This document shows positions 1 through 57,129 of a stretch of DNA of 64,000 nt, in pieces. A program made the position numbers and the translations under genes. The stretch's first letter is position 1. Every line of letters starts with the position of its first letter. Under the pieces are notes generated by a model. The model ran no database searches and was not told where the DNA came from. It saw only the letters and a program-made list of their open reading frames with translations. Source of the stretch: Escherichia phage phiWec179; the sequence record LC739533.1; one strand, written 5' to 3'.

Positions 1-35
1 GATTTAGCCATGATGTTAATCTCTTTTTCAGTGAG

Positions 36-94
36 GCGGGAACTATTCCCGCGCCCTATGTAATACAGTTTACTCTTTTTATTCGTGCTGTCAA
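36..94 (-). promoter_or_regulatory. Early promoter (TTGACA-N16-TAAACT) with conserved 5' leader hairpin, copy 1
   Basis: Minus strand: -35 TTGACA (89-94), 16-nt spacer, -10 TAAACT (67-72), then GTATTACATAGGGCG and perfect hairpin GCGGGAA/TTCCCGC (36-52). ATG of the next leftward gene is at 9-11; that gene runs off the window. Confidence 0.6.
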
Positions 95-100
95 TGCTTT

Positions 101-454
101 TTATAAATCTTTTTTACGTTTTACATCGCTTGCATGACTGTATACAGCGATCCCATTATCACGACAAAAACGGGTAAGGTATGATCCGCGTGAAAACTCT
201 TTCCCTTCCAGGTCAACAACCTTGCTAAATTCTTCCAGGGCAACGGTATCAAAATGATCACCATAACCATATTGAAACGGCACGTTAACAACTTCAATCA
301 ATTTACCGCCGATCTCAACGTCCACGCTTAAAGAAAAATATGTGTTACCGTAGGACTGTTGAAACCAGCGACGGGCGCTAATGTGAACGGCTTCAATCTC
401 ACCAATTTTAAATTGAGTGTTACCCAGGATCGCAACGTTGATATTTTTAGCCAT
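101..454 (-). CDS. Hypothetical protein (117 aa)
   Basis: Intact ORF in the leftward early cluster; no motif recognised. Confidence 0.6.
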   Translation of the reverse strand: MAKNINVAILGNTQFKIGEIEAVHISARRWFQQSYGNTYFSLSVDVEIGGKLIEVVNVPFQYGYGDHFDTVALEEFSKVVDLEGKEFSRGSYLTRFCRDNGIAVYSHASDVKRKKDL

Positions 455-550
455 GATTTTTTCTCTCTTTTTGGTTAGTGGGAAGTGTTCCCGATAAAAG
501 TTATTATGCTTATACTATCGTTTTTTGTCAATAGTATAAGACTAAAACTT

Positions 551-730
551 TTAACGATAATCATCGTAGGCTTTATTAACCTGGCGAATATAACATTCGA
601 AAGCGAGATCAATAGAATCATATTCCCGCACATAATCCCCGTAAGAAACTACATACACACCTTTTTGATCCTCAAACGTCATGATGATAGAATCCAGGCC
701 GATGATTTCAGTTTTAGCGATGATAGTCAT
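551..730 (-). CDS. Small hypothetical protein (59 aa)
   Basis: ORF MTIIAKTEIIGLD...; just downstream of promoter copy 2; not in the ORF track (<60 aa). Confidence 0.45.
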   Translation of the reverse strand: MTIIAKTEIIGLDSIIMTFEDQKGVYVVSYGDYVREYDSIDLAFECYIRQVNKAYDDYR

Positions 731-751
731 AATAATAACCTTTTTATTGTT

Positions 752-808
752 GGCGGCACCATTGCCGCCCTACGTGATAAACTATACCAGAATTTTAAAC
801 AGTGTCAA
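752..808 (-). promoter_or_regulatory. Early promoter (TTGACA-N16-TATAGT) with conserved 5' leader hairpin, copy 2
   Basis: Minus strand: -35 (803-808), -10 (781-786), then TTATCACGTAGGGCGG and perfect 7-bp hairpin GGCGGCA-AUGG-UGCCGCC (752-769). Confidence 0.6.
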
Positions 809-818
809 ACGTTTTTTC

Positions 819-1064
819 TTAGTTTGCGAAATATGGCGCGGCGGCTGATGCCGTTAATCTCCAAGTGATTTGGCTATCGATCAAGTATTCTTCATTCTTG
901 ATCCGCACGGTATCAATCGAGAAGTTACTGAAAGGCTTGCTCTTGATTTTACGAACAACCGTTACACGACGGTTATTTTTCATCTCTTTTAACTGAATCC
1001 AGGCGTAACCTTTTTCATTGACAAATATTTCATTGTGATTGGTGATAGATGATAAGTGTTTCAT
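819..1064 (-). CDS. Hypothetical protein (81 aa)
   Basis: ORF directly downstream of promoter copy 3. Confidence 0.55.
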   Translation of the reverse strand: MKHLSSITNHNEIFVNEKGYAWIQLKEMKNNRRVTVVRKIKSKPFSNFSIDTVRIKNEEYLIDSQITWRLTASAAAPYFAN

Positions 1065-1087
1065 GATTTTTCTCTCTTCTGTTTTGA

Positions 1088-1147
1088 GCGGTGGACCATT
1101 CCGCCGCCCTATGTGTTACATCTTACTACTTTTTTAAACATTGTCAA
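1088..1147 (-). promoter_or_regulatory. Early promoter (TTGACA-N16-TAAGAT) with conserved 5' leader hairpin, copy 3
   Basis: Minus strand: -35 (1142-1147), -10 (1120-1125), then GTAACACATAGGGCGGCGG and hairpin (1088-1107, one mismatch). Confidence 0.6.
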
Positions 1148-1155
1148 GGATATTT

Positions 1156-1437
1156 TTAACTATATGATCCACATCGTTCGCAGTAGTGATCATCGTCGTC
1201 ATCTGCTACCTGGCTGATAAAATGATCTACCTTTGCTTTCAAATTATTATAATTGCTTTCTACTTCCTGTAGTCGTCGTTGGTAGTATTCCAGGGCTTGC
1301 ACATAGGCCATTTGTTCGGTTTTAGCTTGCATAGCTAAATTCATGCCACGCGTTTCATCGTATAACCAATAACCATCATTACATTCACTAATAGATAGTG
1401 TAGGGCTTAGTTTTTCGTGACGGATAACCTTGCTCAT
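1156..1437 (-). CDS. Hypothetical protein (93 aa)
   Basis: Intact ORF; acidic DDDDD stretch followed by CxxC near the C-terminus. Confidence 0.55.
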   Translation of the reverse strand: MSKVIRHEKLSPTLSISECNDGYWLYDETRGMNLAMQAKTEQMAYVQALEYYQRRLQEVESNYNNLKAKVDHFISQVADDDDDHYCERCGSYS

Positions 1438-1447
1438 AGTGTGCCCC

Positions 1448-1558
1448 TTACTTCAAAATGATTGTTGTGATAACTGCTACGGTGATCCAGAATGGAACAA
1501 CTAAGATAATAGCGTTAATCGTTCCAACTGTCAAACTATTTTCTTTCTTGATCATCAT
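1448..1558 (-). CDS. Putative small hydrophobic peptide (36 aa)
   Basis: MMIKKENSLTVGTINAIILVVPFWITVAVITTIILK; AAGGA RBS. The longer track ORF 1448..1681 would run through the promoter hairpin. Confidence 0.35.
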   Translation of the reverse strand: MMIKKENSLTVGTINAIILVVPFWITVAVITTIILK

Positions 1559-1565
1559 GTTTTCC

Positions 1566-1649
1566 TTACAGTGTCCAAAGAATGATTTCAAGTGCAGCAC
1601 GGAAACCAGGAATAAAATTGATTGCAAAAAACAGGGAAGTAGTAAACAT
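1566..1649 (-). CDS. Putative tiny hydrophobic peptide (27 aa)
   Basis: MFTTSLFFAINFIPGFRAALEIILWTL; ATG about 20 nt downstream of the copy 4 hairpin. Confidence 0.25.
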   Translation of the reverse strand: MFTTSLFFAINFIPGFRAALEIILWTL

Positions 1650-1671
1650 TTTTCTATCCTTTCAGTTGTGA

Positions 1672-1727
1672 GCGGCACCATTGCCGCCTGATGAGTTAAC
1701 TATAAGGGATCACGTTTTACCTGTCAA
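1672..1727 (-). promoter_or_regulatory. Early promoter (TTGACA-N17-TATAGT) with conserved 5' leader hairpin, copy 4
   Basis: Minus strand: -35 (1722-1727), -10 (1699-1704), then TAACTCATCAGGCGG and hairpin GCGGCAAUGGUGCCGC (1672-1687). Confidence 0.55.
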
Positions 1728-2281
1728 CCTAAATCATCAAAATAAAGATAATTTTTTTCGGCTTCTTTCTTCTCTTCCTGTGATGCCTCAAAGACTGGGA
1801 GAAAGTGATCAAAGGCGACGCACTCAACCGCTTGATCGTCTTCCTCTTCCTGGTCTTCCTCCTGGGCTATGGCTGCAATTTTGGCTAATTTCCTTTCAGC
1901 CTGGATCAGCTTACCATCTAAAACGCTTTTAGCGGTGCTGTACGCCGTCCAAGTGATGCGCTTACTTTCCAGCGCGGCATCAAGCGCCGCTATCTTGCTG
2001 GGGTATTCATCCAGGACACGAAAAGCCGGATCTACCTTGTACAGCGGATTATCTTTCGCGCCGTCGCTATCATCTGCGGCGCTTGCAATGTCAGCGTTAC
2101 CATTCGCCAGCCAACCAGGGCGATCGCTGCGTGTTTTGGTATTCCCATGACTACGCGCCGATCTGTTGCCTACTTGCTCGCCACTATAGCCAGGAGCATG
2201 ATCGATCATGTCGTCCGGTATAATGCGCGGATCATTAACGTCATGTTTTACCCAGGACTGGATCACATATTCGCGCCCCAT
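1724..2281 (-). CDS. Hypothetical protein (185 aa)
   Basis: Intact ORF with acidic C-terminal region (EEDQEEEDD); no motif recognised. Confidence 0.6.
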   Translation of the reverse strand: MGREYVIQSWVKHDVNDPRIIPDDMIDHAPGYSGEQVGNRSARSHGNTKTRSDRPGWLANGNADIASAADDSDGAKDNPLYKVDPAFRVLDEYPSKIAALDAALESKRITWTAYSTAKSVLDGKLIQAERKLAKIAAIAQEEDQEEEDDQAVECVAFDHFLPVFEASQEEKKEAEKNYLYFDDLG

Positions 2282-2541
2282 TATACACCCCTTTTAACAA
2301 TCATTTCACACACAAGAAATAAGCTGGCGGAATCACGGCAAGGATAGAAAGATGTACGATAATCTCTCACCCCTGCTTTTATGATCTCCGTGGTTTTACC
2401 TGATAGCACATTGTAAATAGTGTAACTTGTCGGACTGTTTTTATATACCTTGCCAGGGTAGATCATAACATAACGAGCAAGGTTATAAAATTCCTCGTTA
2501 CGAAAGGCTATGATCTTCCCGCATACCTTAAGAAAGTGCAC
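2281..2541 (-). CDS. Hypothetical protein (86 aa), GTG start
   Basis: GTG at 2539-2541 preceded by AAGGGGG RBS; stop overlaps the start of the downstream gene. Confidence 0.45.
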   Translation of the reverse strand: MHFLKVCGKIIAFRNEEFYNLARYVMIYPGKVYKNSPTSYTIYNVLSGKTTEIIKAGVRDYRTSFYPCRDSASLFLVCEMIVKRGV

Positions 2542-2551
2542 GTTAGCCCCC

Positions 2552-2824
2552 TTACAGCAAAAAGTTTACTTGTCTTGCTGTTAATGTAGTATCAACCATT
2601 TTCGGGCTTTTATAATTGACAAAACGCGCGGTTTTTTCAATAGCGAAGCCGAGATAATCTTGTTTGTTGAAATTACATTCTTTCTTAAATGTTTCCCGTG
2701 CAATGGCGATCGCTGCGTCCAGGGATAAACGCCCGTCAATATTGATATTTGCGAAAGATCCGCCACCGCTCATAGGTTTACCAGTGGTGCCCGTTACGAT
2801 CATTGTTGCGCTATATGATGCCAT
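2552..2824 (-). CDS. Hypothetical protein (90 aa)
   Basis: Start taken at the internal Met (MASYSATMIV...) downstream of the copy 5 hairpin; the track start at 2860 lies inside the hairpin. Confidence 0.55.
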   Translation of the reverse strand: MASYSATMIVTGTTGKPMSGGGSFANINIDGRLSLDAAIAIARETFKKECNFNKQDYLGFAIEKTARFVNYKSPKMVDTTLTARQVNFLL

Positions 2825-2846
2825 GATGATAATCTCTCTTAGTTGT

Positions 2847-2908
2847 GAGCGGTGGACCATTCCGCCGCTCTACGTGATACATCTTATCAGGTTGTTGCCT
2901 GTTGTCAA
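2847..2908 (-). promoter_or_regulatory. Early promoter (TTGACA-N16-TAAGAT) with conserved 5' leader hairpin, copy 5
   Basis: Minus strand: -35 (2903-2908), -10 (2881-2886), then GTATCACGTAGAGCGGCGG and hairpin 2847-2870. Confidence 0.6.
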
Positions 2909-2914
2909 TACTTT

Positions 2915-3653: not shown

Positions 3654-3655
3654 TC

Positions 3656-3684
3656 TTGACAAGCCCAGGGATCGGGCTTATACT
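3656..3684 (+). promoter_or_regulatory. Consensus sigma70 promoter (TTGACA-N17-TATACT) firing into a non-coding region
   Basis: Perfect -35 at 3656-3661, 17-nt spacer, -10 TATACT at 3679-3684. No credible ORF with an RBS lies downstream before about 4470. Confidence 0.6.
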
Positions 3685-3908
3685 GTTTTACATACAGAAG
3701 AGGAAGCGCCACCCCACGGCGTAAAGGCGGGGCTAACATACCAGGGGCACTGGTTGGAAGGTCGATCGCCGGGAGGCTGGGCGCTATATATTTGTAAAGA
3801 AATGTAAAGATAAAATAATCGCTTGCTTTCCTGGCTGGATCTGTTATTCTTATTACATGGCGAGGGGACACGGGAGCGCGAGACAATCACCGGACCTGCC
3901 CGTCATTC

Positions 3909-4020
3909 TGCAAATGAGAAAAATTCTCATTTGCAAATAAGACTCATTCGCATTTAATAATTGAATGAGAATCATTCTCATTCTCATTCGTATTTCGATT
4001 TTAAGTGAGAATAATTCTCA
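3909..4020. repeat. Three palindromic operator-like sites with core TGAGAA-N1-3-TTCTCA
   Basis: Palindromes at 3909-3935 (12-bp arms), 3963-3983 (10-bp arms) and 4006-4020 (7-bp arms). Confidence 0.7.
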
Positions 4021-4034
4021 TTTCGGTAATTTTC

Positions 4035-4219
4035 ACGTAAACTTTAGAATTTGCTTTTCAACTTTCACTTTTGTAAAAGCAAAAAAACTTTAAATACCTG
4101 GTGCGCGCGACTTTTTAAAAAATTTTTCTCGGTTTTTTGCTTTGAAATCTGGCCCACCAATTTGAGATAGTGTACGTAAACTTTAGAATTTGGTTTTGGA
4201 TTCTCACTTTTGTAAACTC
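4035..4219. repeat. Imperfect ~46-bp direct repeat pair plus TTGAGATA triplet
   Basis: ACGTAAACTTTAGAATTT identical at 4035-4052 and 4174-4191, with similar extensions ending ACTTTTGTAAA. TTGAGATA occurs at 4162, 4248 and 4271. AT-rich context. Confidence 0.7.
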
Positions 4220-4375
4220 GTAAAAAGTTTAAATAATTGTAGGGATTTTGAGATAGTTTGCTTGTAAGGTTTGAGATAATCCTTCCCGAAGATGTTACGC
4301 AGCCTACAGCCTACCTGAATGCTCGTCTAACGAGATTAACTCTAAAAGATGAGTGTTGGTGTAGCTAAAGAGAAA

Positions 4376-4402
4376 AGGCTCTCTACGGTGTTGTAGGAGC
4401 CT
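4376..4402. terminator. Intrinsic terminator hairpin, probably bidirectional
   Basis: Stem AGGCUC/GAGCCU with extended CUAC/GUAG pairing; T-rich tail on the minus strand (UUUUCUCUUU) after the leftward operon, weaker T-tract on plus. Confidence 0.55.
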
Positions 4403-4473
4403 TATTTCTGTGGCACAAAGTTGACGTATTCTTTTTAAAAACGAATTTTTTCAAAATATCACGAATATCGCCT

Positions 4474-5189: not shown

Positions 5190-5555
5190 TTAGTCCATCC
5201 ACCAGTAGCCATAAACTGCGTCTGCGTCGATGAGTTTGTGTTTGTTGTTCCGCATGTAGTCTAAGATAAGTAGACGTTTATTGTATCTGGAGAGATTATG
5301 ACCCTCTTTTCCGCCATAGTCAAAATATTTTGCAAGACTTTTACACTCAAACAAAATCAGTTCGGGAGTTTCTTCACATTGGTCTGTCTGGTACACTTGA
5401 CGGATGATCATGTATACGTCATCGTCTTCCGCTAAGTGCTCTACTGGTCCACACCCAGCAGGAATAAATTCATAGTCCCATCGAATCAGATGTTTCTCTA
5501 CTGCTTCAAAGAAATCCATTTTTTCGCTACGCATGATCTGAACATCAATTAACAT
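5190..5555 (-). CDS. Hypothetical protein (121 aa)
   Basis: ORF with AGGAGG RBS; overlaps the stop of the upstream gene. Confidence 0.55.
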   Translation of the reverse strand: MLIDVQIMRSEKMDFFEAVEKHLIRWDYEFIPAGCGPVEHLAEDDDVYMIIRQVYQTDQCEETPELILFECKSLAKYFDYGGKEGHNLSRYNKRLLILDYMRNNKHKLIDADAVYGYWWMD

Positions 5556-6561
5556 AATTTTCCTCCTGTCTCATTATTCCACCTGCTTGGTTGATAGCAC
5601 TTAAGACAACAGCCAAATCCTCACGCAGGAAGGTTTCACTATGACCGTCTTTCATGTGCAACGCTTCCACACAGCCGATAGACGGTAGGATCTGATCAGT
5701 CTTAGATTTTAGCTTACTCTCTAACGCCCTGCAAGCCTGGTAGGACGGCAGATCAAACAATGCTACACGTTGCATAAAGTAGTTATTATTTGCATTCTGA
5801 ATCTTCAAACGTATATCACTATCCTTTGCAATCCCCAGCTTGAAAGCTCCCGTATCTTCTCCATACTCATCAAGGATAACGTTGATGTAAAATTCTTGCT
5901 GTGATCTGCCTTTACATTCAGAACAACCATTCCCACTTAGATACTTATTAGGTGTTATCGTTTGTTCTCCGTGCTCACTACATAAATATTTAAACTTAGA
6001 CATGGTTCCCACCTTACCAACGAACCCTATAAACTGGTCCCCTCGTTCCTGGCAAGCTTCAGTCATACGGAAAATCCATTGCGCAGGAGTGTAACGATGG
6101 TTTTTAGAACAACGGCAAGCAAGCAGCCCATCTCTAAGACTGCTCCTCGTTACTTCAAACCTACCGTTACACACGCCAGCCTTTACATATTCGTCATGAG
6201 AACATACGGAACACTTAACTATCCAATAAGCCGCCCATCCTTTACTATCTAATCTATCACTACGATAATACTCACGCGGAACGTTATCAGGACACGCTTT
6301 GTTAAAGGTTGTGATATGGATTGAATCATCAATTAAACATGTTTGCCTTATTGCTTCCACCCTACAACCTTTACAACCACTTCCTATTTTAGCATTATCT
6401 ATAGAAGTTGTTCTCCATTCCCCATGTATAGAACATTCACAGGTTAGTTTAGTGCGTGCCCCCTTCCATTCACCATGCCACCCCGTAATGGTCCACGGTT
6501 TATCCTGGTAAGCTTGTTCTATTTCTTCCTGATATTCCTCCCAACTTTTAGCCCTCATCAT
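5545..6561 (-). CDS. T5orf172-type (GIY-YIG superfamily) domain protein with N-terminal Cys-rich repeats; homing-endonuclease-like
   Basis: C-terminus FKLGIAKDSDIRLKIQN...ACRALESKL...KDGHSETF fits the T5orf172 pattern; CxxC / C..HG repeats in the N-terminal part. Paralog of 10129..11082. Confidence 0.6.
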   Translation of the reverse strand: MMRAKSWEEYQEEIEQAYQDKPWTITGWHGEWKGARTKLTCECSIHGEWRTTSIDNAKIGSGCKGCRVEAIRQTCLIDDSIHITTFNKACPDNVPREYYRSDRLDSKGWAAYWIVKCSVCSHDEYVKAGVCNGRFEVTRSSLRDGLLACRCSKNHRYTPAQWIFRMTEACQERGDQFIGFVGKVGTMSKFKYLCSEHGEQTITPNKYLSGNGCSECKGRSQQEFYINVILDEYGEDTGAFKLGIAKDSDIRLKIQNANNNYFMQRVALFDLPSYQACRALESKLKSKTDQILPSIGCVEALHMKDGHSETFLREDLAVVLSAINQAGGIMRQEENYVN

Positions 6562-6575
6562 CCCCCCTACAACAA

Positions 6576-6593
6576 ATGCCCCTTGCGGGGCAT
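6576..6593 (-). terminator. GC hairpin (AUGCCCC-UUGC-GGGGCAU), terminator-like
   Basis: Between the AAA+ ATPase stop and the T5orf172 start; weak U-tract on the minus strand. Same GCCCCTTGCGGGGC core as the late terminator at 49347-49360. Confidence 0.35.
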
Positions 6594-7738: not shown

Positions 7739-7763
7739 TTACTTTCTCCTCTTCTGTTGGAAT

Positions 7764-7798
7764 AGACGTATTATCTCTTGTCTAATACGTCTTGTCAA
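7764..7798 (-). promoter_or_regulatory. Promoter (TTGACA-N17-GATAAT) embedded in a 10-bp inverted repeat
   Basis: Minus strand: -35 (7793-7798), -10 (7770-7775). Perfect inverted repeat AGACGTATTA (7764-7773) / TAATACGTCT (7783-7792) spans the -10 box. Confidence 0.5.
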
Positions 7799-7806
7799 TA
7801 CTTGTT

Positions 7807-8166
7807 TTAGATCCCTTCGCCTTTAGTGATGATAGCTTCCATCACCACAGCTTTCTTCTTACGTTGAACATCTTGACGGATCAGGAGGCTACCACCTTGA
7901 TCATCCTTATACTGCTTCATGATGATGAAGTTGTTGCCACACACAGCGCCGATAGCCACGTATGGGCGATTAGAATTATCCACATCCGCAGATGGGGTTA
8001 CATCCGTGCAAGTAAAGAACTTGCCATCAGGATCAGTATAAGCAAAGTGGCCTTTAGCAGTTACTGCAACTTCTCCGGTGCTTGTGGACTGTGCAGCCAC
8101 AAACGGTGCAGCAGATGCTACGAAACTTGCAGACAGCAGGGCTACAGCTAAAATAATCTTTTTCAT
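7807..8166 (-). CDS. Secreted protein with N-terminal signal peptide (119 aa)
   Basis: MKKIILAVALLSASFVASA then mature domain; AGAGGAG RBS. Confidence 0.65.
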   Translation of the reverse strand: MKKIILAVALLSASFVASAAPFVAAQSTSTGEVAVTAKGHFAYTDPDGKFFTCTDVTPSADVDNSNRPYVAIGAVCGNNFIIMKQYKDDQGGSLLIRQDVQRKKKAVVMEAIITKGEGI

Positions 8167-10128: not shown

Positions 10129-11082
10129 ATGAAATACGAAGATTTTAAACAAATAGTTAAAGACGATGTGGTATTTGAGAACTTACAGGAAGGTTGTGAA
10201 GTCTTAGGTTGGACAGAAAGAGATAGAAACTTTGCAAAAATATACGTAATACGTTGTAGTGTTTGTGCCAAAGACCCCGAAATGTATGGAGATGGTCTTT
10301 TTACAGCTACAAAAGGGCGTTTAGTGAAAGGTCAGAAATGTTGCGCGTGCGCTGTATCCTTTAAATACAGTCAAAACCAACACCTAATTCTGCTAAACAG
10401 GCATTTAAGTGTCGCAGGGTACAGCATAGTTTCTATTGGTGCTTGGGAGTGTTCTAAGACGAGAATAGAGTTTAGTTGTGAGAATGGACACACGAAGAAC
10501 AGAACCCTGGCTCAAGCAAAGGTAGTAGAACCTTGTAAACAGTGTCTTGAAGAAGGCTGTACAAAACACAAACAAGATGAGGCAGAGGCAAAAATTATGA
10601 AGATAATAGAAGATAAATGTTTACCTTATGTATTTGTAGGGTGGGATACTTCTTACAAGAATGTAACTTCAAAATTCAACCTCATCTGTTCGGATCACGG
10701 TTTAAAAACAATAAGATACGCTTGTTTCCTAAATGGTCATTTTTGTAACGAGTGTTCTGGTAGAAATTGCCTAAGTCTTTATTTATTAGGAGTTTATGAT
10801 AGAGACTTGTTGGTAGGTTTAAAATTTGGCATCTCTCAGAGTCCAGTAAGAAGGGTTCAACAGTTAAATAAAAGGAACTTATTTAAATGTAAAATACTAC
10901 AGATTTGGACTTTTACATCACATGATCAAGCTGTACGGATGGAAACATTATTAAAGAACACATTGCGAACTGGAATATTTACTAAAAGAGAGATGAAAGA
11001 TGGTCATACAGAAACCACAGAAGTTACTAATTTAGAAACCATAATGGACCTTATGACCTCATCTCATGGATTGGTTAGTTAA
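10129..11082 (+). CDS. T5orf172-type (GIY-YIG superfamily) domain protein with N-terminal Cys-rich repeats; homing-endonuclease-like
   Basis: C-terminus LKFGISQSPVRRVQQLN...AVRMETLLKN...KDGHTET; CxxC / C..HG repeats. Paralog of 5545..6561. Confidence 0.6.
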   Translation: MKYEDFKQIVKDDVVFENLQEGCEVLGWTERDRNFAKIYVIRCSVCAKDPEMYGDGLFTATKGRLVKGQKCCACAVSFKYSQNQHLILLNRHLSVAGYSIVSIGAWECSKTRIEFSCENGHTKNRTLAQAKVVEPCKQCLEEGCTKHKQDEAEAKIMKIIEDKCLPYVFVGWDTSYKNVTSKFNLICSDHGLKTIRYACFLNGHFCNECSGRNCLSLYLLGVYDRDLLVGLKFGISQSPVRRVQQLNKRNLFKCKILQIWTFTSHDQAVRMETLLKNTLRTGIFTKREMKDGHTETTEVTNLETIMDLMTSSHGLVS

Positions 11083-38953: not shown

Positions 38954-40715
38954 GTATGGTTTTGATGTAGATTTAAGCAAAGAGGGGCACACAGGGTGTC
39001 CCCGTTGTATGAAGAACGGAAAAGATAGATCGAAGAATAACTTGATGTGTTATGGGTTGGATTCTAACGATGAGCATAAAGGAGCAAAATGCTTCGCGTG
39101 TGAGTACACAATCCCCAGCGTTGAATGGTTACGAGAGAATGGTGAAGTTTTAGAAGAAGAGGAGGATATTGTGGGTTCGGAATTTAATAAAGAGATTCAT
39201 CGTAAGATTGTAGAAGAAACAGGCACTAACCCACGAGGCTACCGTGGGATCAAGGAAGAATATTCTAAATTCTACGGTGTACGTTACCAGTACAAACAAG
39301 AAGAATCTGGTGTTGTTGTGGAACATACTTTGTATCCAACAACTATCGGTAAAGAACTGGTAGGTTTTAAGCGTCGTATCCACCCTAAAGACTTCTCCAA
39401 GCCCATTGGTCAAGTAGGTAAAGATGTAGATTTGTTTGGACAAGTTCGTTTCCTTGAGCGTTCCCACACCGTAATCATTACTGGTGGTGAACATGATGCC
39501 TTGGCAGCATATCAAATGTTGGCAGAAGGTCTTGACAGGAAATATGAATTACCAGCAGTAGTTAGTGGCACAACTGGTGAAACCAGTATGTACAAACAGG
39601 TACAGGCACAGTACCCTTTCTTTGAGAAGTTCAAGAAGATCATCGTCTGCATGGATAATGATAAGGCAGGTAAAGAAGCTTTTGAGAACATTGTGAAGGT
39701 GTTGCCTCGTAATAAAGTTTACCTGATGAAGATGGAACTGAAAGATGCTAATGAATACCTGGTGCAAGATAAAGCAAAAGATTTTGTGAAAGCTTATTGG
39801 GGTGCAAAACTTTATACCCCAGCGGGTGTTTATGCTTCGAACGAACTTTATGAAGCTGCAATGGACTGTCTGGATGCACAAGTGATCACCCTCCCTCCGT
39901 TCATGCGTACTGCTGCGAACATGTTGGGTGGTGGTCTGGTAGAAGAAGAGATCACAGTTATTCTGGCTAAAACGAGTATCGGTAAGACGTTGATGGTCAA
40001 TGAGATCACCAAACACATTATCGTGGCTCATCCAGAACATGTGCTGGGTATTCTGTCTCTGGAGGCAACGTATAAGAAATACTCCCGTAACCTTCTTTCT
40101 TCGTTCCTGCATATTCCTTTGCATCGTAAGACTAAGGAAGAAAAGGCTGCGATCCTGGAAGAGAACAAGGAAGCTATCAATAACTTCTACGTTCGTGAAG
40201 ATGGTTCTCCTCGCTTCTTTGTTTGTGATGATCGTGGTGCAGACATTGATTCAATCAAGGAGAAAGTGCTGGAGATGATCATCTACTTCGGCATTACCAT
40301 CCTGGTAATTGACCCATACTCGGATCTGTTGTCGGGGATGAGTGTTCAGGAACAAGAAGAGTTGGCAACGTGGTTGAAGCGCATCATGAAAGAATACGGC
40401 ATCACGATCATTGTAATCTCGCACGTTAAGAAAGCTGCCAACAATGGTAACGAACACTTAACAGAAGATGATGCAATGGGTAGTAGCTTCTTGGCTAAAG
40501 GCGCAGGTATTACACTGGCACTGGAACGAGATAAGGCTAACGATGACCCCGTACTTAGAAACACAACTTTTTGTTATATTCTCAAAAACCGAGAGTTTTC
40601 AGAAACTGGTCCGGCTGGGGAGTTTTATTACGATATTAAAACTGCCACGCTACACGACAAAGCACAGTATTTTGCTAACCCTGATAATGCAGGTGGTGCA
40701 GAAGGCGCGTATTGA
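38934..40715 (+). CDS. Bifunctional primase-helicase (T7 gp4-like)
   Basis: N-terminal zinc ribbon CPRC...CFAC, TOPRIM-like VIITGGEHDALAAYQ, DnaB-like Walker A ILAKTSIGKT and IIVISHVKK. Confidence 0.8.
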   Translation: MSYIVTKYGFDVDLSKEGHTGCPRCMKNGKDRSKNNLMCYGLDSNDEHKGAKCFACEYTIPSVEWLRENGEVLEEEEDIVGSEFNKEIHRKIVEETGTNPRGYRGIKEEYSKFYGVRYQYKQEESGVVVEHTLYPTTIGKELVGFKRRIHPKDFSKPIGQVGKDVDLFGQVRFLERSHTVIITGGEHDALAAYQMLAEGLDRKYELPAVVSGTTGETSMYKQVQAQYPFFEKFKKIIVCMDNDKAGKEAFENIVKVLPRNKVYLMKMELKDANEYLVQDKAKDFVKAYWGAKLYTPAGVYASNELYEAAMDCLDAQVITLPPFMRTAANMLGGGLVEEEITVILAKTSIGKTLMVNEITKHIIVAHPEHVLGILSLEATYKKYSRNLLSSFLHIPLHRKTKEEKAAILEENKEAINNFYVREDGSPRFFVCDDRGADIDSIKEKVLEMIIYFGITILVIDPYSDLLSGMSVQEQEELATWLKRIMKEYGITIIVISHVKKAANNGNEHLTEDDAMGSSFLAKGAGITLALERDKANDDPVLRNTTFCYILKNREFSETGPAGEFYYDIKTATLHDKAQYFANPDNAGGAEGAY

Positions 40716-40721
40716 TTCAGA

Positions 40722-40745
40722 AGGGGCGCAAGCCCCTCTTGACTT
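40722..40745 (+). terminator. Terminator-like hairpin (AGGGGC-GCAA-GCCCCT)
   Basis: After the primase-helicase stop; followed by CTTGACTTTTGATT. Confidence 0.45.
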
Positions 40746-40798
40746 TTGATTGAGGAATGTGATACCCTTCAGGTTGAGTTACATAATATGGAGGACTA

Positions 40799-43396
40799 AT
40801 GAGTAAGTTTACATGGGATATTGAAGCAACCGCATTACTGAACAATGACACAATTGATTACCTGGCAAGCCCTTATCGATTGAAAGACACTTTTGGTATG
40901 CATTGTATTTGTCTGGAAAACCACGAAACAGGAGAGATCATTGCTTTTCACGATGGTCCTAAGTACATTTTCGATGGTCGTCCTTATGAAGAGTCTGACG
41001 GTAAGTACACTTATGTACTGAAGGAGTATGTGGCACAAGAATACACACACTTTCCTCTGTCAGATTTTCCAGATTTTGTCAACCATACAGGCAAGTTCGC
41101 AGATAAGCCTGAATACCTCGTAGAAATGGCTGTAGCCCACAACGGCATCAACTATGACCACTTGGCAGTTAAGCTTTACTACGGGCTGAATTACAGCGTT
41201 AAATACAATACTTGGGGTGATTCGAAAGTTAAGATTATTGATACCCTGATCCTTAGTAAAGTATTGAACCCTGATCGCAAGGTTGATGGTAAACCTGGGC
41301 ACAACTTGAATGCTCTTTCTAAAAAAGCTGGCGGTGATGTTAAGATTGATTTCCGTAAAGAGCTTCCAGAAGGAGAACGATTCAAGACTTTCGCAGCAGA
41401 TATGTTGTACTACTGTATCTACGACAACAAGGCAACTACAGCAGTATATTATTACCTCATGGAAGAATGGGGCGATTATAAGAAGTGGCAAGAGCCGTTC
41501 GACTTGGAGCAACGTATTGCGGATATCATCACCCGTCAAGAACACCGTGGCTTTAAGTTCAACATGCAACAAGCTGAACAGAACCTGGAATTCTTGGACA
41601 AAGAAATGGAACGTCTACGTTTGTTGGTAGAGCCTATTCTTCCACCTAAGCCAGCGACTAAAGGTTATCTGAAAGATTTTATTCCGCCGAAACTTCAAAT
41701 CAAGAAGAACGGTGAGCCAACAAACCATATCATCAGGTTTGCGGAGAAACATGGCGGTAGCCTTGAAGAACGTGAAGGTGATTGGTGGCTGCTTGTTTTA
41801 GATAAAGAGTTTAAGTTACCGATCTCAAGTGAAGAACCTATTTGTGAACCTACCATTCCGTCTACGCTGAATGATACGACACACATTAAAAACTGGCTTG
41901 TAGGTTTAGGTTGGGTTCCGTCTGAATATAAAGACAAGGATTTGACGCTTAAATCTGGTTCGAAGATCAAGAAAGATCCTGACGACTTAGAGAAAGGTAT
42001 TCTGTCTTATGTCAAACAGACCTTGGAAAGCAATTTCTGTAATGACCGTTGCGAACACTTACAAGCCGATGCTGAAACACTGGAGCTTAGAATCCGTGAA
42101 CGTCTGGCTAAAGGGAAAGGTCGTGGTCTTAAAGTGCTGACCAACCCATGCTTCACGAAGGGGCAGGAGAAAGAGATTTGTCCTAATCTTGAAGCACTGG
42201 GCGAGAAGTTCCCGTATGCCACACAGATTGTGCAGTACCTGACGTACAAACATCGTCGAAACTCTATTTTGGGCGGTGGTGCAGATTGGGAAGACGATGA
42301 GGAAGATCAAGAATACGACAAAGGTTTCTTGGCAGCAGTTCGTGCCGATGGTCGTATAGCGACTCCAGCGGCTACATGTGACGCTGCAACATCTCGTATG
42401 AAGCATCGCTCTGTTGCTAACGTTCCTCGCGTTACATCGTTGTTTGGGTACGAAATGCGTAACTTGTTTGGGGTAGAAACACCGCGTTACTTCCAGATCG
42501 GTTATGACTTTGACTCCTTGGAAGCAAAGATTGAGTCGCATTATTGTTGGCGCTACGAACCGGAGCCTCATGAATACTGTAACGCTCTCTTGTTGGAGAA
42601 GCCTAACGATGTTCATACCATGATGGCAAGACGTATCACAGAAACTATTGGACGTAAGTTTGAACGTAGTCCAGCTAAATCTGTTAAATACGGGATTACA
42701 TATGGAGCACAGGCAGACAAAGTTGCTAAGACAATTGGTAGTGATAAGTACACAGGACAACTGGTATTTGATGCGTTCTGGGAAGCAGCTTTCCCGTTAG
42801 CACAACTGAAAGAGAAGTTGAATGCTTTCTGGGTTAACACTGGCAAGCAGTATGTTCTCGGTATTGATGGACGTAAAGTTCCAACACGATCTGCACATGC
42901 AATCTTAAACTCCTTGTTCCAAAGTGGCGGGGTTATCTGTGCCAAGCGTGCAATGGTAATCTATGACGATATGATTGAAGAGGAAGGTTTAGCTGTTGAC
43001 TTCTTCGTAGATGACTGGAAGAATAAAGAGTTCGTTCAGCAAATGATTGCTTACCACGATGAAGCGCAGCTTGAAGTATCTCGTAACTTGGTGGAATTTA
43101 AATGGTTCTCCAAAGAGTCTTTAGGTTGGGTTAAAGTGGATGACGAGAAAGAGCAGAAGAAAATAGATGCGGAATGTCTTGCAAAAGCTAATGAATGGAA
43201 GCATAATAAAGAGAAAGAGACAGGGCAGATTTGGGCTAACGTTCACGAATCACCTAAAGGTGGTTGGTTTACCGCTTATAGTCGTGCCGGAGAACTTGCT
43301 TCTCTTGCTGTTATCAAAGCTGGGGAATATTACAAACTAAACGTTCAGCTTACCGCTGGATACGATGTTGGTAGTTCCTGGGCCAGTTGTCATTGA
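40799..43396 (+). CDS. Family A DNA polymerase with 3'-5' proofreading exonuclease
   Basis: Exo I FTWDIEAT; motif A IGYDFDSLEAK; motif B RSPAKSVKYGITYG; motif C IAYHDEAQ. Confidence 0.85.
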   Translation: MSKFTWDIEATALLNNDTIDYLASPYRLKDTFGMHCICLENHETGEIIAFHDGPKYIFDGRPYEESDGKYTYVLKEYVAQEYTHFPLSDFPDFVNHTGKFADKPEYLVEMAVAHNGINYDHLAVKLYYGLNYSVKYNTWGDSKVKIIDTLILSKVLNPDRKVDGKPGHNLNALSKKAGGDVKIDFRKELPEGERFKTFAADMLYYCIYDNKATTAVYYYLMEEWGDYKKWQEPFDLEQRIADIITRQEHRGFKFNMQQAEQNLEFLDKEMERLRLLVEPILPPKPATKGYLKDFIPPKLQIKKNGEPTNHIIRFAEKHGGSLEEREGDWWLLVLDKEFKLPISSEEPICEPTIPSTLNDTTHIKNWLVGLGWVPSEYKDKDLTLKSGSKIKKDPDDLEKGILSYVKQTLESNFCNDRCEHLQADAETLELRIRERLAKGKGRGLKVLTNPCFTKGQEKEICPNLEALGEKFPYATQIVQYLTYKHRRNSILGGGADWEDDEEDQEYDKGFLAAVRADGRIATPAATCDAATSRMKHRSVANVPRVTSLFGYEMRNLFGVETPRYFQIGYDFDSLEAKIESHYCWRYEPEPHEYCNALLLEKPNDVHTMMARRITETIGRKFERSPAKSVKYGITYGAQADKVAKTIGSDKYTGQLVFDAFWEAAFPLAQLKEKLNAFWVNTGKQYVLGIDGRKVPTRSAHAILNSLFQSGGVICAKRAMVIYDDMIEEEGLAVDFFVDDWKNKEFVQQMIAYHDEAQLEVSRNLVEFKWFSKESLGWVKVDDEKEQKKIDAECLAKANEWKHNKEKETGQIWANVHESPKGGWFTAYSRAGELASLAVIKAGEYYKLNVQLTAGYDVGSSWASCH

Positions 43397-43423
43397 CATT
43401 TACTTGATTTTAAAGGAGTTTTT

Positions 43424-44020
43424 ATGCTTACTGTATATGGTGAAGGTATTAATGATCTGGAGGGTGAGAGCACTCTACCTGGTAGTAAGAAACTGACTCC
43501 TCATTATATGAAATGGATGGCTATGTTGGGGAGGTGTTACTCCCCTTGCCAACAAGAACGTGATCCTTGTTATCATGGGGTGCTGGTCTGTGAAGAATGG
43601 AAGCTGTTTTCCAACTTCTATGCTTGGTTAAAAACTTGGGAAGAGTGGGAGAAATTAGAATTAGACAAGGATATTATTGGAGGGGGAGTTTACTCCCCTA
43701 ACACCTGCCTTTTAGTAACAGGAGATCTTAACAAGTTCTTAGCTTATAGAGTGAGTAAAAGATCTCATGGAACTATGGTAGGTTTACATTACGAAAAAGA
43801 TCGTAAGAAGTATAAAGCCAATATTAAAACAGGCTCACGCATGGTAACACTTGGACGTTTTGATACTGAACTTGAGGCGCATCTTTGTTGGTTGAAAGCT
43901 AAAGCAGAACAACTTACAAAGTTTTTTGAAACAGAAGACAAAAGAGTTGTTCCACATCTTAAAGCATTGTATAATGATATGCTTGAACATATTGAACAAC
44001 GTAAGGAGTGGACACGATAG
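43424..44020 (+). CDS. AP2-domain homing-endonuclease-like protein, paralog B
   Basis: W..MLGRC...Y..V.VCEEW..F..F..W, LDKDIIGGGVYSPNTC, AP2-like MVTLGRFDTELEAHLCW; paralog of 38315..38953. Confidence 0.5.
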   Translation: MLTVYGEGINDLEGESTLPGSKKLTPHYMKWMAMLGRCYSPCQQERDPCYHGVLVCEEWKLFSNFYAWLKTWEEWEKLELDKDIIGGGVYSPNTCLLVTGDLNKFLAYRVSKRSHGTMVGLHYEKDRKKYKANIKTGSRMVTLGRFDTELEAHLCWLKAKAEQLTKFFETEDKRVVPHLKALYNDMLEHIEQRKEWTR

Positions 44021-44028
44021 GAGGGTAT

Positions 44029-44223
44029 ATGCGTTACGATTTAGATTACTTTGGTATGCCTTACCTACCCGATGAGTTCGCAGATGAGGCGGAAGATCGT
44101 GAGTGGGATGATGGGGATATCCGTTGTTGGTCTTGTGGTAAAGACATGTCTTACGAACAACACATGCACAACGATGGCTTCTGTCCGCACTGTCAGAATG
44201 AAATAGATTTAGAGGAGGACTAA
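44029..44223 (+). CDS. Small zinc-ribbon protein (64 aa)
   Basis: CWSCGK...CPHCQN; AGGAGG RBS. Confidence 0.5.
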   Translation: MRYDLDYFGMPYLPDEFADEAEDREWDDGDIRCWSCGKDMSYEQHMHNDGFCPHCQNEIDLEED

Positions 44224-44225
44224 TA

Positions 44226-44393
44226 ATGACTTCCGGTATTATGATCTGTTATAAGATCGTTCGTATTGTTGGGGATGAAGTTACTACTCGCCACTTTATG
44301 ATTGAAAATCATGCTGATGAGGTGTATAATGATTGGCTGGAACAAGGCGGATACGACTTCGTATCTAAAGAAACTTTCCACTTAGAAGTATAA
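44226..44393 (+). CDS. Small hypothetical protein (55 aa)
   Basis: GGAGGA RBS then ATG; not in the ORF track. Confidence 0.4.
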   Translation: MTSGIMICYKIVRIVGDEVTTRHFMIENHADEVYNDWLEQGGYDFVSKETFHLEV

Positions 44394-44402
44394 GGAGAAG
44401 AA

Positions 44403-44621
44403 ATGCGTAAATTAGTGAGTTTTAATGTTTCAATTCTGATTGATGAACAAAATGAAGATGTTATTAAAGGTCTTGCAAATAAGATTGAAGGTGGAATGAC
44501 GGAAGCAGAAGTATGGGAAGAATGTGCTCGACTTTATGAAGCAGGTGTTCTTGAAGTCTTGGAAGATGAGATTAATATGGATGATGTTGTTAAAGTAACT
44601 GTGGAGCGTATCAATGACTAA
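44403..44621 (+). CDS. Hypothetical acidic protein (72 aa)
   Basis: AAGGAG RBS. Confidence 0.5.
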   Translation: MRKLVSFNVSILIDEQNEDVIKGLANKIEGGMTEAEVWEECARLYEAGVLEVLEDEINMDDVVKVTVERIND

Positions 44622-45219
44622 ATCAAGCCAGATTACCCTTGCCCGTGAGATCCTTACTGTTCTTAAGATTGCTGATCCTCGTTCAATCCTGGCAGGTGGC
44701 GCGGTCCGTGATTGGTACATGCTGGACATTGCAGGGCGAGATCTGGACTTCTATACATCATTCCAGCCACACCGAAACATAGATCAGGTGATTACGTTTA
44801 TCAAAGAGAATCTTAAAGGCACCAATGTAACCGTGTTAGGTCAGGAGGAAATGGGTGACAACTATGAGTCTATGATCGGACTGAAACATGTGTTTGAGTT
44901 TATCCGTGATGATCAGGTTTGCAATCTCATGATCATGGAACCATGCTACATGAGCAACATCCTGAAAAACTTTGATCTTTCTGTTTGCAAAGCTTCGTTT
45001 GATGGTGTAGAATATTACTTCGATCCTGACTTCCTGGTAACAGATGCAACAAATATTTGCTTCGTGCATAAGGATGTTAAAGTGGATGCGAAACACGTCC
45101 GTAAGATCGCGGATCGCTTCCCGCACATGCGTTTTGTACGTGACTTGGATGTGCAGCGTCGCACGCAAGATAAGGCTCTACCAAAGTTCGAAGATACTGA
45201 TGAAGATATTCCTTGGTAA
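44614..45219 (+). CDS. Minimal nucleotidyltransferase (CCA-adding/poly(A) polymerase head-domain-like) with SSB-tail-like C-terminus
   Basis: ILAGGAVRDWYMLDIAGRDLDFY resembles the GGxVRD...DxD head-domain motif. Protein ends EDTDEDIPW, resembling the SSB tip DDDIPF. Confidence 0.45.
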   Translation: MTKSSQITLAREILTVLKIADPRSILAGGAVRDWYMLDIAGRDLDFYTSFQPHRNIDQVITFIKENLKGTNVTVLGQEEMGDNYESMIGLKHVFEFIRDDQVCNLMIMEPCYMSNILKNFDLSVCKASFDGVEYYFDPDFLVTDATNICFVHKDVKVDAKHVRKIADRFPHMRFVRDLDVQRRTQDKALPKFEDTDEDIPW

Positions 45220-45263
45220 TAAAGCTTGACTTTCACTAATCTTTTATGATAGGATGACAATCA

Positions 45264-45659
45264 ATGACTGAACGTTCAAAAGTAAGTGTTGAAACTGAAT
45301 ACAGCGAATACCTGAACAGTTTGATACTTGTTGAAAAAGATGTAATAGGTCTGGATAACTCGTTCTTCTTTCAAATCCTGATAGGTAAGGGTGGACACCG
45401 AAAGTTATTCTCTCGCGTGGAAGACTCTGACCTATCCGAAACTGAAATAACGGTTAAAGAACTTATTAGCCTACAGGATAACATCCGAAAAGTTATTGAC
45501 ACAGCCGGGAACGCTGTTACAATAAAACTCGACATGCATTCTGTGCAATTTGTTCATTTTCCGAATGGAGAAATTGGAGTTGGAATAGGTAAAGGTAAGT
45601 ACCTTTTAGAAAAAGAAAACGCAGAGCTTCTTCGTGAGTTCTGTGCAAAAACAATGTGA
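45264..45659 (+). CDS. Hypothetical protein (131 aa)
   Basis: Intact ORF. Confidence 0.55.
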   Translation: MTERSKVSVETEYSEYLNSLILVEKDVIGLDNSFFFQILIGKGGHRKLFSRVEDSDLSETEITVKELISLQDNIRKVIDTAGNAVTIKLDMHSVQFVHFPNGEIGVGIGKGKYLLEKENAELLREFCAKTM

Positions 45660-45676
45660 ATATAGAGGAGATAATA

Positions 45677-46585
45677 ATGTCCGTAATTAATACTGAAACT
45701 GATCGTAAAGGCAAAACTGTAACTTATGCAACTGGTGTTGTAGACTACGTTAAACTGGATAAATTCGCAGAGCCTAAAACCTTCCAATGGGATGGTAAGT
45801 CGATTGTTTCTACTCACCGTGCTTCACTCGTTCTGAAAGAAAAGGGTGCCAAGCAGGATGCAAAAGGGACGTGGATTAGCCTGGGTGATATTGAACTGAA
45901 AGAAGGTTACGAAAATCTTCAGGTTAAAGATGGTGATACTTGGATCACTATCGAAAAAGGTGTTGAAGTTAGTATTGATATCGACAAAGTTGATACCAAA
46001 GGCGACAAAACTTACTACAATACCAAGAAATCTCGTATCACTGTTCTTTCTACTGAAGGTGTTCAGAAGAAAGAAAATAAATCTGGTGGGACTGGCGTTT
46101 CAGGTAATACTGGAAACAAACAATCCTTCAAAAAACGTGATACCGTAGGTCTTGAGACTGGTCATGCAGTTAACGGAGCTTTGGAACTGATTCGTAATGG
46201 TGTGAAAGGTGAAGCGTTTGATATTGCAGGTGTGGTTCAGTCTGCTACTGTGACTCTGAAAGCTGAAGTGGCTAAAGAGCGTGGCGTAGATATCAGTGAT
46301 TATGATCTGGGGGCTTCTGTTGGTCACGCTGTTCTGAATGCCTGTAAAGATCATTCCGGTAAGACTGTTTCGGTAGAAGATTTGATTGAAACTGCTCGTG
46401 AAGTTCTGGCACTTTCTGACAAGGTAGCTAATGCCATTCGTGGCGCAGCAGAACAACCTAAGAAAGAAGAAGCCAAGAAAGAGCCTAAGAAGGAAGAACC
46501 GAAGCAGGAGCCTAAACAAGAACCTGCTCCTCAACAAAATCCAGAAGAACCTCCAATGGACTTCGATGATGATATTCCATTCTGA
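45677..46585 (+). CDS. ssb: Putative single-stranded DNA-binding protein
   Basis: C-terminal acidic tail ends MDFDDDIPF, identical to the E. coli SSB tip as recalled; Lys/Glu/Pro-rich linker precedes it. Start at MSVINTETD after GAGGAG. Confidence 0.55.
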   Translation: MSVINTETDRKGKTVTYATGVVDYVKLDKFAEPKTFQWDGKSIVSTHRASLVLKEKGAKQDAKGTWISLGDIELKEGYENLQVKDGDTWITIEKGVEVSIDIDKVDTKGDKTYYNTKKSRITVLSTEGVQKKENKSGGTGVSGNTGNKQSFKKRDTVGLETGHAVNGALELIRNGVKGEAFDIAGVVQSATVTLKAEVAKERGVDISDYDLGASVGHAVLNACKDHSGKTVSVEDLIETAREVLALSDKVANAIRGAAEQPKKEEAKKEPKKEEPKQEPKQEPAPQQNPEEPPMDFDDDIPF

Positions 46586-46619
46586 TCTTATTGATTTATA
46601 AAGAGTTTTTATAAAAGAA

Positions 46620-46648
46620 AAGGGAACCTTTGCGGGTTCCCTTTTTTA
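46620..46648. terminator. Bidirectional intrinsic terminator between convergent early and late genes
   Basis: Stem GGGAACC / GGTTCCC flanked by A-run upstream and TTTTTT downstream, so U-tracts on both strands. Confidence 0.7.
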
Positions 46649-49324: not shown

Positions 49325-49344
49325 TTTTATCCTCCATAAAAGAA

Positions 49345-49362
49345 AAGCCCCTTGCGGGGCTT
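49345..49362 (-). terminator. Intrinsic terminator between tail-fibre genes
   Basis: Stem AAGCCCC / GGGGCTT with TTGC loop and U-tract on the minus strand; RBS GGAGG of the next gene follows. Confidence 0.6.
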
Positions 49363-49365
49363 CTA

Positions 49366-56499: not shown

Positions 56500-57129
56500 T
56501 TAATCGATTTGTTTCAGAAGCATACACATGCGTCCAGTTTCATCCCCTGTGGATTCCAAGTACAAGGAACCCAAACCACCAATACCATGAGGATCTTTGG
56601 TAGCGTAATAAGAGGTGAATCCAAAAGCTGATCCGGCTTTAGCTCCCAGTCGGTAGTTGCTTATAATTGGGAACACACTTAAAAGTTGCTCAAGAGCTTG
56701 ATCAGACTGAAGACACAAGTTATAAAAGAACACATCAAAGGATTTATTCAATCCCACATATGTGTTAATTGTATCTCGTTTTGTACCTGTGAAACGGGCG
56801 AAGATATCAATAATGTCCCCACGAGTCCCCGAAGAGGCAACACGATAAGCCCTGATTTTTAAAATTGTGCGGTACTCTTCATCATCAGAACCATTTCGTT
56901 CAATACCCATCTCTTCACCAAGGAGATCAAGATAATCTCCCGTGGCTGTAGATATTAAACGGTGTTTAGCAAGATAGATCATTGCCTGATCTATCTTTTG
57001 CTTTTCACTTGATACGATGTAGAGGAGCTTGACAATGTTAGGGGAAGATTTAAAATCTTCAATCAACAGATCTTTAACGTCTTCATTGATATTCTCCCAA
57101 GTCGTTACATGGTCAACACTCACTGCCAT
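56500..57129 (-). CDS. Baseplate-associated structural protein (209 aa)
   Basis: Position between the fibre gene and the large baseplate-like gene; composition consistent with a baseplate component. Confidence 0.45.
   Translation of the reverse strand: MAVSVDHVTTWENINEDVKDLLIEDFKSSPNIVKLLYIVSSEKQKIDQAMIYLAKHRLISTATGDYLDLLGEEMGIERNGSDDEEYRTILKIRAYRVASSGTRGDIIDIFARFTGTKRDTINTYVGLNKSFDVFFYNLCLQSDQALEQLLSVFPIISNYRLGAKAGSAFGFTSYYATKDPHGIGGLGSLYLESTGDETGRMCMLLKQID

Follow-up and report, generated by a model that had tools for sequence, protein, structure and literature searches.

An inverted repeat in a lineage-specific ATPase promoter of Wecvirus phages: a candidate promoter/stem-loop cassette of the PeSL type

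Introduction

Strong sigma-70-like promoters joined to stem-loops, termed PeSLs, have been described in T4-like phages (PMC2839356; PMC4122927). Their stem-loops lie mostly between the -35 and -10 hexamers or over the -10 box, promoter and terminator/attenuator activities have been shown for them in reporter assays, and the elements contribute to gene shuffling (PMC2839356; PMC4122927). In the PeSLs of RB49/phi1, PST and nt-1 (Arbiol et al. 2010; Comeau et al. 2014), a stop codon is followed by a sigma-70 promoter with a stem-loop, a Shine-Dalgarno sequence and an ATG.

Two other known arrangements bear on inverted repeats in promoters. Intrinsic terminators and promoters can overlap in compact phage genomes, the hairpin of the upstream transcript being packed into the next promoter. 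Classical operators, such as lac O1, lambda OR and OL, those of P22 and the LexA boxes, have dyad symmetry between -35 and +1, in a position where a bound protein would occlude RNA polymerase; the centres of their half-sites are about 10-11 bp apart.

The locus described here belongs to phages related to phiWec181, a lytic myovirus of the Stephanstirmvirinae in the proposed genus "Wecvirus" (PMC12695924). The window, the whole stretch of 64,000 nucleotides that was analysed, comes from the record of phiWec179 (LC739533.1) and is identical to bases 48119-112118 of the phiWec181 genome (LC739534.1; 154.5 kb), in which the genome-wide searches were made. Positions are those of the window unless given as genome positions, which refer to phiWec181. 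An earlier note, made from the letters of the window, had pointed out an inverted repeat at the promoter of an AAA+ ATPase gene and had read it as the operator of a dimeric regulator or as a hairpin in the nascent RNA. We propose instead that the repeat may be the RNA stem-loop half of a PeSL-type promoter/stem-loop cassette, a reading to which we give a probability of about one half. In the literature on transcription in Phapecoctavirus, Wecvirus and rV5 we found no account of such cassettes and no transcript maps.

Results and discussion

The ATPase promoter and its transcription unit

The features of the locus are collected in Table 1. The promoter named in the earlier note, TTGACA-N17-GATAAT on the minus strand, was located: its two hexamers agree with the consensus at 11 of 12 positions, it lies in a 68-bp gap between genes, and the 31 nt that separate it from the ATPase ATG (7738) include a suitably placed GAGGAG. 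The gap begins after the stop codon of the upstream gene (7807-7809), so that the cassette separates a stop codon from the Shine-Dalgarno sequence and ATG of the following gene, which has the same orientation. The 11 nt from the stop codon to the -35 box (TAAAACAAGTA) contain nine A or T residues; other cassettes of this phage, described below, have longer A-rich tracts. The genome contains 31 sites that agree with the consensus at 11 or more of the 12 positions, whereas random sequences with matching dinucleotide composition give 3.9 (about an eightfold excess). Three recurrences of the context of the -35 hexamer, AAGTATTGACAAG, coincide with other listed promoters of the phage. Judged from the sequence, TTGACA-N17-GATAAT is well supported as a genuine promoter of the ATPase gene for host sigma-70 RNA polymerase.

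Table 1. Coordinates of the ATPase promoter region in the window, and of early cassettes with a core-promoter stem in the phiWec181 genome
Feature	Position	Strand	Remarks
Upstream gene, 119 aa	7807..8166	-	N-terminus signal-peptide-like; phrog_5474
Intergenic cassette, 68 bp	7739..7806	-	specific to the Wecvirus lineage; missing in Phapecoctavirus and phi92
-35 hexamer TTGACA	7793..7798	-	upstream context AAGTATTGACAAG recurs in the genome
Left, promoter-proximal arm AGACGTATTA	7783..7792	-	-29 to -20; adjoins the -35 hexamer
Loop, 9 nt, GACAAGAGA	7774..7782	-	ends with GA of the -10 box
Right arm TAATACGTCT	7764..7773	-	-10 to -1; includes TAAT of the -10 box and the discriminator
-10 hexamer GATAAT	7770..7775	-	from the consensus scan
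Predicted transcription start, A	7763	-	7 nt past the -10 box; placed by standard sigma-70 geometry
Shine-Dalgarno GAGGAG	7746..7751	-	within the leader motif CAACAGAAGAGGAGAAA, which recurs at many places in the genome
AAA+ ATPase gene, 379 aa	6599..7738	-	PF00004, phrog_2376; served by the promoter
Intrinsic-terminator-like hairpin ATGCCCCgcaaGGGGCAT, then TTGTTGT	6568..6593	-	directly past the ATPase stop codon
Early cassette, TATAGCGCC-N8-GGCGCTATA	genome 46773		around the -10 box; core stem, no leader hairpin
Early cassette, CTTATACTAT-N12-ATAGTATAAG	genome 48649		around the -35 box; core stem, no leader hairpin
Early cassette	genome 39119		stem around the -35 box; core stem, no leader hairpin
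Early cassette	genome 49652		stem around the -10 box; core stem, no leader hairpin

The 119-aa gene is the last of the upstream leftward run of genes (9994-7807), which has a promoter ahead of it, TTGACA-17-TAATCT, at about 10065. The hairpin that follows the ATPase gene has a homologue that carries a terminator annotation in phage Schickermooser. The gene is thus bracketed by a promoter and a putative terminator of its own, and it is therefore well supported, at the level of sequence, as a separate transcription unit that is new in the Wecvirus lineage. The suggestion that the ATPase is regulated apart from the rest of the leftward operon accords with its own promoter, with the GC hairpin and U-tract past its stop codon, and with sister genera that have no promoter at this place.

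No antisense promoter on the plus strand was visible within the repeat, either in the sequence or in the promoter scan. The promoter (7770-7798, minus strand) also holds a direct repeat, GACAAGA, present twice at a distance of 14 nt (TT-GACAAGA-CGTATTA-GACAAGA-GATAAT). Among the neighbouring genes, the leftward run of the ATPase includes one for a NADAR-domain protein (PF08719; 4474-5001, minus strand). Two genes with CapR homology, at 5545-6561 (minus strand) and 10129-11082 (plus strand), are annotated as endonucleases in relatives, and the second has an additional weak MUG113/GIY-YIG-like match under the Pfam cutoff. The first is missing from phiWec188, and at the position of the second no plus-strand gene is seen in phiWec188 or in ESCO13; by this pattern both appear to behave like mobile homing-endonuclease genes.

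Comparison among relatives

The cassette has a narrow distribution. When 50,697 phage records were searched with a 74-nt cassette sequence, only five Wecvirus-like genomes were matched, at one place in each, and the 68-bp gap is near-identical in phiWec181/186, phiWec188/190, PsgM04F, one IMG/VR contig and one metagenome fragment. In members of Phapecoctavirus (ESCO13, ukendt, Schickermooser) the homologue of the upstream gene, whose protein is 39% identical to that of Wecvirus, overlaps the ATPase start codon and there is no promoter; the ATPase genes of the two genera are about 74% identical in DNA sequence. In phi92 (Justusliebigvirus) the upstream gene stops 12 nt before the ATPase ATG, again with no promoter. 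As both Phapecoctavirus and phi92 are without the gap and the promoter, the dedicated promoter is therefore taken to be a derived feature of Wecvirus.

Within the genus the element hardly varies. Among four Wecvirus sequences none of the 35 positions of the promoter and repeat is variable, compared with four of the 33 in the rest of the gap, and these 35 nt are identical in a fifth, partial copy from a metagenome (L042). The probability of finding no variable site among 35 is 0.13 if the average local rate is applied and 0.01 with the intergenic rate, a weak signal of conservation that is inseparable from selection on the promoter itself. The repeat is identical in every known copy and there is no covariation among them; pattern scans of viral and metagenome contigs for compensatory changes in the arms gave only identical copies (L011, L042).

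Position and geometry of the repeat

A perfect 10-bp inverted repeat is present as described in the earlier note. As the window is written, its arms are AGACGTATTA at 7764-7773 and TAATACGTCT at 7783-7792; they are complementary at 10 of 10 positions with a spacing of 9 nt, and in promoter coordinates on the minus strand the repeat extends from -29 to -1. The span of 7764-7798 that had been given for it is correct as far as 7792, but positions 7793-7798 are the -35 hexamer and lie outside the repeat. Similarly, the -10 box does fall within the span of the repeat, as had been said, but it is not enclosed in the loop. It straddles the border between loop and arm, with GA closing the loop and TAAT opening the right arm. 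The edges of the repeat are sharp and have no imperfect extension. The stem is perfectly Watson-Crick paired, four of its ten pairs being G-C, and the predicted hairpin has a folding energy of about -11 kcal/mol (-11.2 as the core hairpin); the 86 nt that were folded have a z-score of -2.75. The leader of the ATPase cassette folds at -1.6 kcal/mol, compared with -11.2 for the core hairpin.

Chance occurrence of repeats in promoters

Taken alone, the repeat is only moderately unusual, the window containing six perfect repeats of at least 10 bp (3-20 nt loop) where 1.09 are expected; it is the location that is non-random. Of 69-mers drawn at random from the genome, 0.18% contain a repeat as large as the one in this 69-nt promoter segment. 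At the 31 promoter-like sites with at least 11 of 12 matches, embedded arms of 10 bp were found twice (0.05 expected), arms of at least 9 bp three times (0.12 expected) and arms of at least 7 bp seven times (2.1 expected), and in shuffles of the flanking sequence none matched the observed counts for arms of at least 8 bp. Two further sites were set aside. A promoter-like match at 57029-57056 (11 of 12 positions, with an 8-bp palindrome) and an 11-bp repeat at 56971-56997 are inside a coding region (56500-57129, minus strand) and were not counted as support; the first is probably no promoter, and some of the consensus matches are false.

These figures bear directly on the view that the palindrome has no function of its own and is a by-product, arising by chance or by a template switch that perfected a quasi-palindrome when the 68-bp spacer arose, with the promoter alone under selection. 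About one perfect 10-bp repeat is expected per 64 kb by chance, and the sharp ends of the repeat, its single copy and its missing U-tract would all suit such an origin, the known copies being too alike for selection on the arms to be told from that on the promoter. We nevertheless consider a by-product unlikely. Promoter-embedded repeats are enriched well above chance in this genome, hairpins of the core promoter and of the leader complement each other in their distribution (see below), and at two other promoters with arms of at least 9 bp the arms have been kept between Wecvirus and Phapecoctavirus. At the homologues of these two promoters in ESCO13 one of the loops has diverged while the arms remain.

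Uniqueness of the half-site and the operator reading

The earlier note had proposed a search for further copies of the repeat, and had named uniqueness as part of what would speak against its reading; the repeat is unique in the phiWec181 genome. A scan of the 154.5 kb with the half-site at up to one mismatch, together with short-word BLAST, gave no second exact copy of the half-site, and no further copy of the full repeat was present in the window at up to three mismatches. Eight half-site copies with one mismatch are scattered in the genome, and the three that were compared with ORF lists or annotation are all in coding sequence. The only sequence that the ATPase cassette has in common with other sites consists of the generic contexts of the -35 hexamer (AAGTATTGACAAG) and of the Shine-Dalgarno sequence (CAACAGAAGAGGAGAAA).

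The exact arms, with any loop of 3-15 nt, were also searched for in viral contigs and in 596 Gb of bacterial and archaeal genomes. The cellular genomes yielded 28 scattered matches, mostly in unrelated metagenome-assembled genomes and several in AT-rich Firmicutes; none of the 28 is enterobacterial. Viral contigs yielded three, which are one Wecvirus, one 130-kb contig and one ordinary terminator with a 15-bp stem. By our own arithmetic the counts outside Wecvirus are about those expected by chance from base composition in collections of this size. The 130-kb contig (IMG/VR UViG_3300022602_000039), which is unrelated and AT-rich, carries TTAGACGTATTA-caaTATAAT-TAATACGTCTAA (locus L012, positions 1000-1028) between an ORF rich in Gly and Tyr and an HNH endonuclease ORF. 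The arms there are the same, lengthened to 12 bp, with an equal spacing of 9 nt and TATAAT in the loop. Despite this strikingly similar geometry, the likeness is judged from the match counts to be coincidental.

If the repeat were an operator, a dimeric phage or host protein would bind both 10-bp half-sites, at a distance of 19 bp from centre to centre, and would block or time the ATPase promoter. Its perfect dyad symmetry falls exactly over the core promoter (-29 to -1), as in classical operators; promoter and repeat are invariant in all known copies; a new, lineage-specific promoter might need its own control; and the neighbouring genes, mostly of unknown function, could hide a regulator. 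The search results weigh more heavily on the other side. The half-site is unique in the genome, and its exact arms occur elsewhere at chance frequency and in no enterobacterial genome among the matches. Pfam and PHROGs scans of 15 different neighbouring proteins revealed no helix-turn-helix or other DNA-binding domain. The repeats embedded in other promoters of the phage are unrelated in sequence, so that every one of them would have to have its own regulator. Elsewhere in the window a palindrome, TGAGAA-N3-TTCTCA, does recur, in three copies (3914-4023), and the ATPase repeat has nothing comparable. The locus thus differs from the classical operators in the distance between half-site centres (19 bp as against about 10-11 bp), in being single-copy, in having no cognate regulator that we could find and in its company of promoters with unrelated palindromes. 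For these reasons we could not uphold the operator proposed in the earlier note, and regard such a site as quite improbable.

One specific regulator was considered by sequence. The MetJ met-box consensus is AGACGTCT, and MetJ needs at least two directly adjacent 8-bp boxes. The outer octamers of the repeat, AGACGTAT and ATACGTCT, each agree with this consensus at seven of eight positions. Met-boxes were rejected all the same: 21 nt separate the starts of the two octamers, and the octamer adjoining the first matches at none of eight positions.

Stems embedded in other promoters of the phage

Embedded repeats are over-represented at the strong promoters of this phage, and the sequence of the repeat is different at each. 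This points to structure, and not to one sequence-specific binding protein, as the common property. The leftward early region (genome 39-51 kb) contains about 19 cassettes of a common plan, in which an A-rich tract is followed by TTGACA, 16-17 nt, a -10 box, a hairpin, a ribosome site of the ACAGAAGAGAGA type and an ATG. In 15 of the 19 the leader opens with a GC-stem hairpin, GGGCGGCAATGGTGCCGCC or one of its variants with paired changes. All four early cassettes that have no leader hairpin carry a stem in the core promoter instead (Table 1), compared with only two of the 15 that have one (Fisher p = 0.004). The ATPase cassette resembles a second class with shorter leaders and follows the same rule of a stem either in the core or in the leader. 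In a member of the short-leader class, at genome 22347, a GC stem in the spacer is followed by TATTGTTTGT, giving a canonical terminator packed into a promoter.

At two of the promoters the composition of the stem bears on which molecule folds. At genome 49652 and 125378 the embedded stem depends on G·U pairs, which only the sense strand can form; for those two this points to RNA, not DNA, as the folded molecule. Across the class the asymmetry in G·U pairs is modest (25 sense versus 14 antisense).

The early leader hairpins form a family in their own right. Copies of ACGTAGGGCGGCAATGGTGCCGCC and its variants with paired changes were seen at 39,000-51,100 of phiWec181 (window 1-2,910 and upstream). 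They begin a few nucleotides past the predicted transcription start, and no U-tract follows the copies for which downstream sequence was read; they could be a family of mRNA-stabilising or protein-recognised hairpins.

The repeat as part of a PeSL-like cassette

The position of the repeat limits which RNA could fold it. RNA made from the ATPase promoter would start at about 7763, just beyond the repeat, and would not contain it because the repeat ends at -1. The idea of a hairpin in the nascent RNA therefore fails for the promoter's own transcript and holds only for RNA that reads through from upstream. We propose that RNA started at the promoter near 10065 and extended through genes 9994-7807 would fold the 10-bp stem. 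The hairpin would most likely mark or protect the 3' end of the upstream message, or would weakly attenuate read-through, and expression of the ATPase would then be set mainly by the local promoter. Since hairpins of this phage are found on either side of the transcription start, they are most simply explained as acting on read-through RNA.

In its architecture the locus resembles the PeSLs in several respects. The order from stop codon through promoter and stem-loop to Shine-Dalgarno sequence and ATG is shared, the position of the stem-loop differs among copies and is mostly in the -35/-10 interval or at the -10 box, and many copies are found in an early region of small genes. The cassette also coincides with an insertion/deletion difference, being present in Wecvirus and absent from Phapecoctavirus and phi92. 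There are differences too. The host phage belongs to the Stephanstirmvirinae and is not T4-like, so that the cassette is PeSL-like by architecture, not by descent, and what the ATPase copy has in common with the other cassettes is limited to generic motifs. The stem of this copy is AT-rich and has no U-tract, whereas PeSL stems are of the poly-G/poly-C kind; it serves a conserved ATPase gene and not an orphan gene; and a terminator role is putative here.

A Rho-independent terminator, for which a GC-rich stem, a loop of 3-8 nt and a U-tract directly after the stem were required, was rejected for the repeat. It did not appear in the terminator scan, its loop is 9 nt long, only four of its ten pairs are G-C, and the next 8 nt contain two U residues. 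The resemblance to overlapping terminators and promoters, of which genome 22347 is the clear case, thus extends to the packing of an upstream transcript's hairpin into the next promoter, but the hairpin at the ATPase promoter does not have the features of a terminator. As it has no U-tract and a 9-nt loop, strong termination at this stem is unlikely, and by its predicted structure any effect on read-through is likely to be weak or to be exerted on RNA stability. No Rfam covariance model reached its gathering score anywhere in the window, and the matches around the site were at noise level.

The repeat might also act as DNA, either as a cruciform that tunes promoter strength or as a recombination point for insertion of the cassette, for example in modular shuffling of the PeSL type. 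The cassette is indeed an insertion relative to two sister genera, and a synthetic promoter regulated by cruciform extrusion has reportedly been made. On the other hand, a 9-nt loop with 10-bp AT-rich arms would be poorly suited to cruciform extrusion, there is no second copy of the cassette with which to recombine, and comparison of the Wecvirus genomes revealed no indel bounded by the repeat of the ATPase promoter. A role at the level of DNA is in our view highly unlikely.

Implications

On the PeSL-like reading, the element at the ATPase promoter would add a new member to an already known type of regulatory cassette, in phages for which we found no earlier description of it in the literature. 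More tentatively, we suggest that PeSL-type cassettes extend beyond the T4-like phages, and that in the Stephanstirmvirinae one was inserted between genes that overlap or are tightly packed in sister genera, creating an insulated ATPase unit. Instead of such an inserted cassette, the element could be the operator of an undiscovered regulator specific to the new promoter, which is less likely. Should the PeSL-like reading be correct, the freedom of the stem-loop to lie either in the core promoter or in the 5' leader would show its action to be on read-through RNA.

The locus suggests that a conserved gene in a large lytic phage can have its expression rewired by a 68-bp insertion that joins a host-type promoter to a hairpin, and that the promoter/stem-loop design of T4-like phages is also used by unrelated coliphages of the kind employed in therapy work. 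For annotation, inverted repeats on strong phage promoters should not be taken as operators by default. The practical value is modest: the cassette offers a compact, defined and probably strong promoter, and a testable case of hairpin-mediated insulation.

Other structured sites in the window

Two further regions of the window contain structured sequence. The first, at 3654-4473, is a non-coding region of about 820 bp with a plus-strand promoter (3656-3684) whose spacer contains a GC hairpin; a GC-rich and probably structured stretch comes next, at 3700-3790. The three TGAGAA-N3-TTCTCA palindromes are located there, at about 3914-3930, 3966-3982 and 4007-4023, as is a direct repeat of about 45 bp (approximately 4036-4080 and 4174-4220). 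The whole resembles a replication origin or a genuine array of operators, possibly with a small RNA. The second site, at 46618-46645, is a perfect 11-bp repeat, AAAAGGGAACC-tttgcg-GGTTCCCTTTT, with runs of A and T on either side, and looks like a bidirectional terminator.
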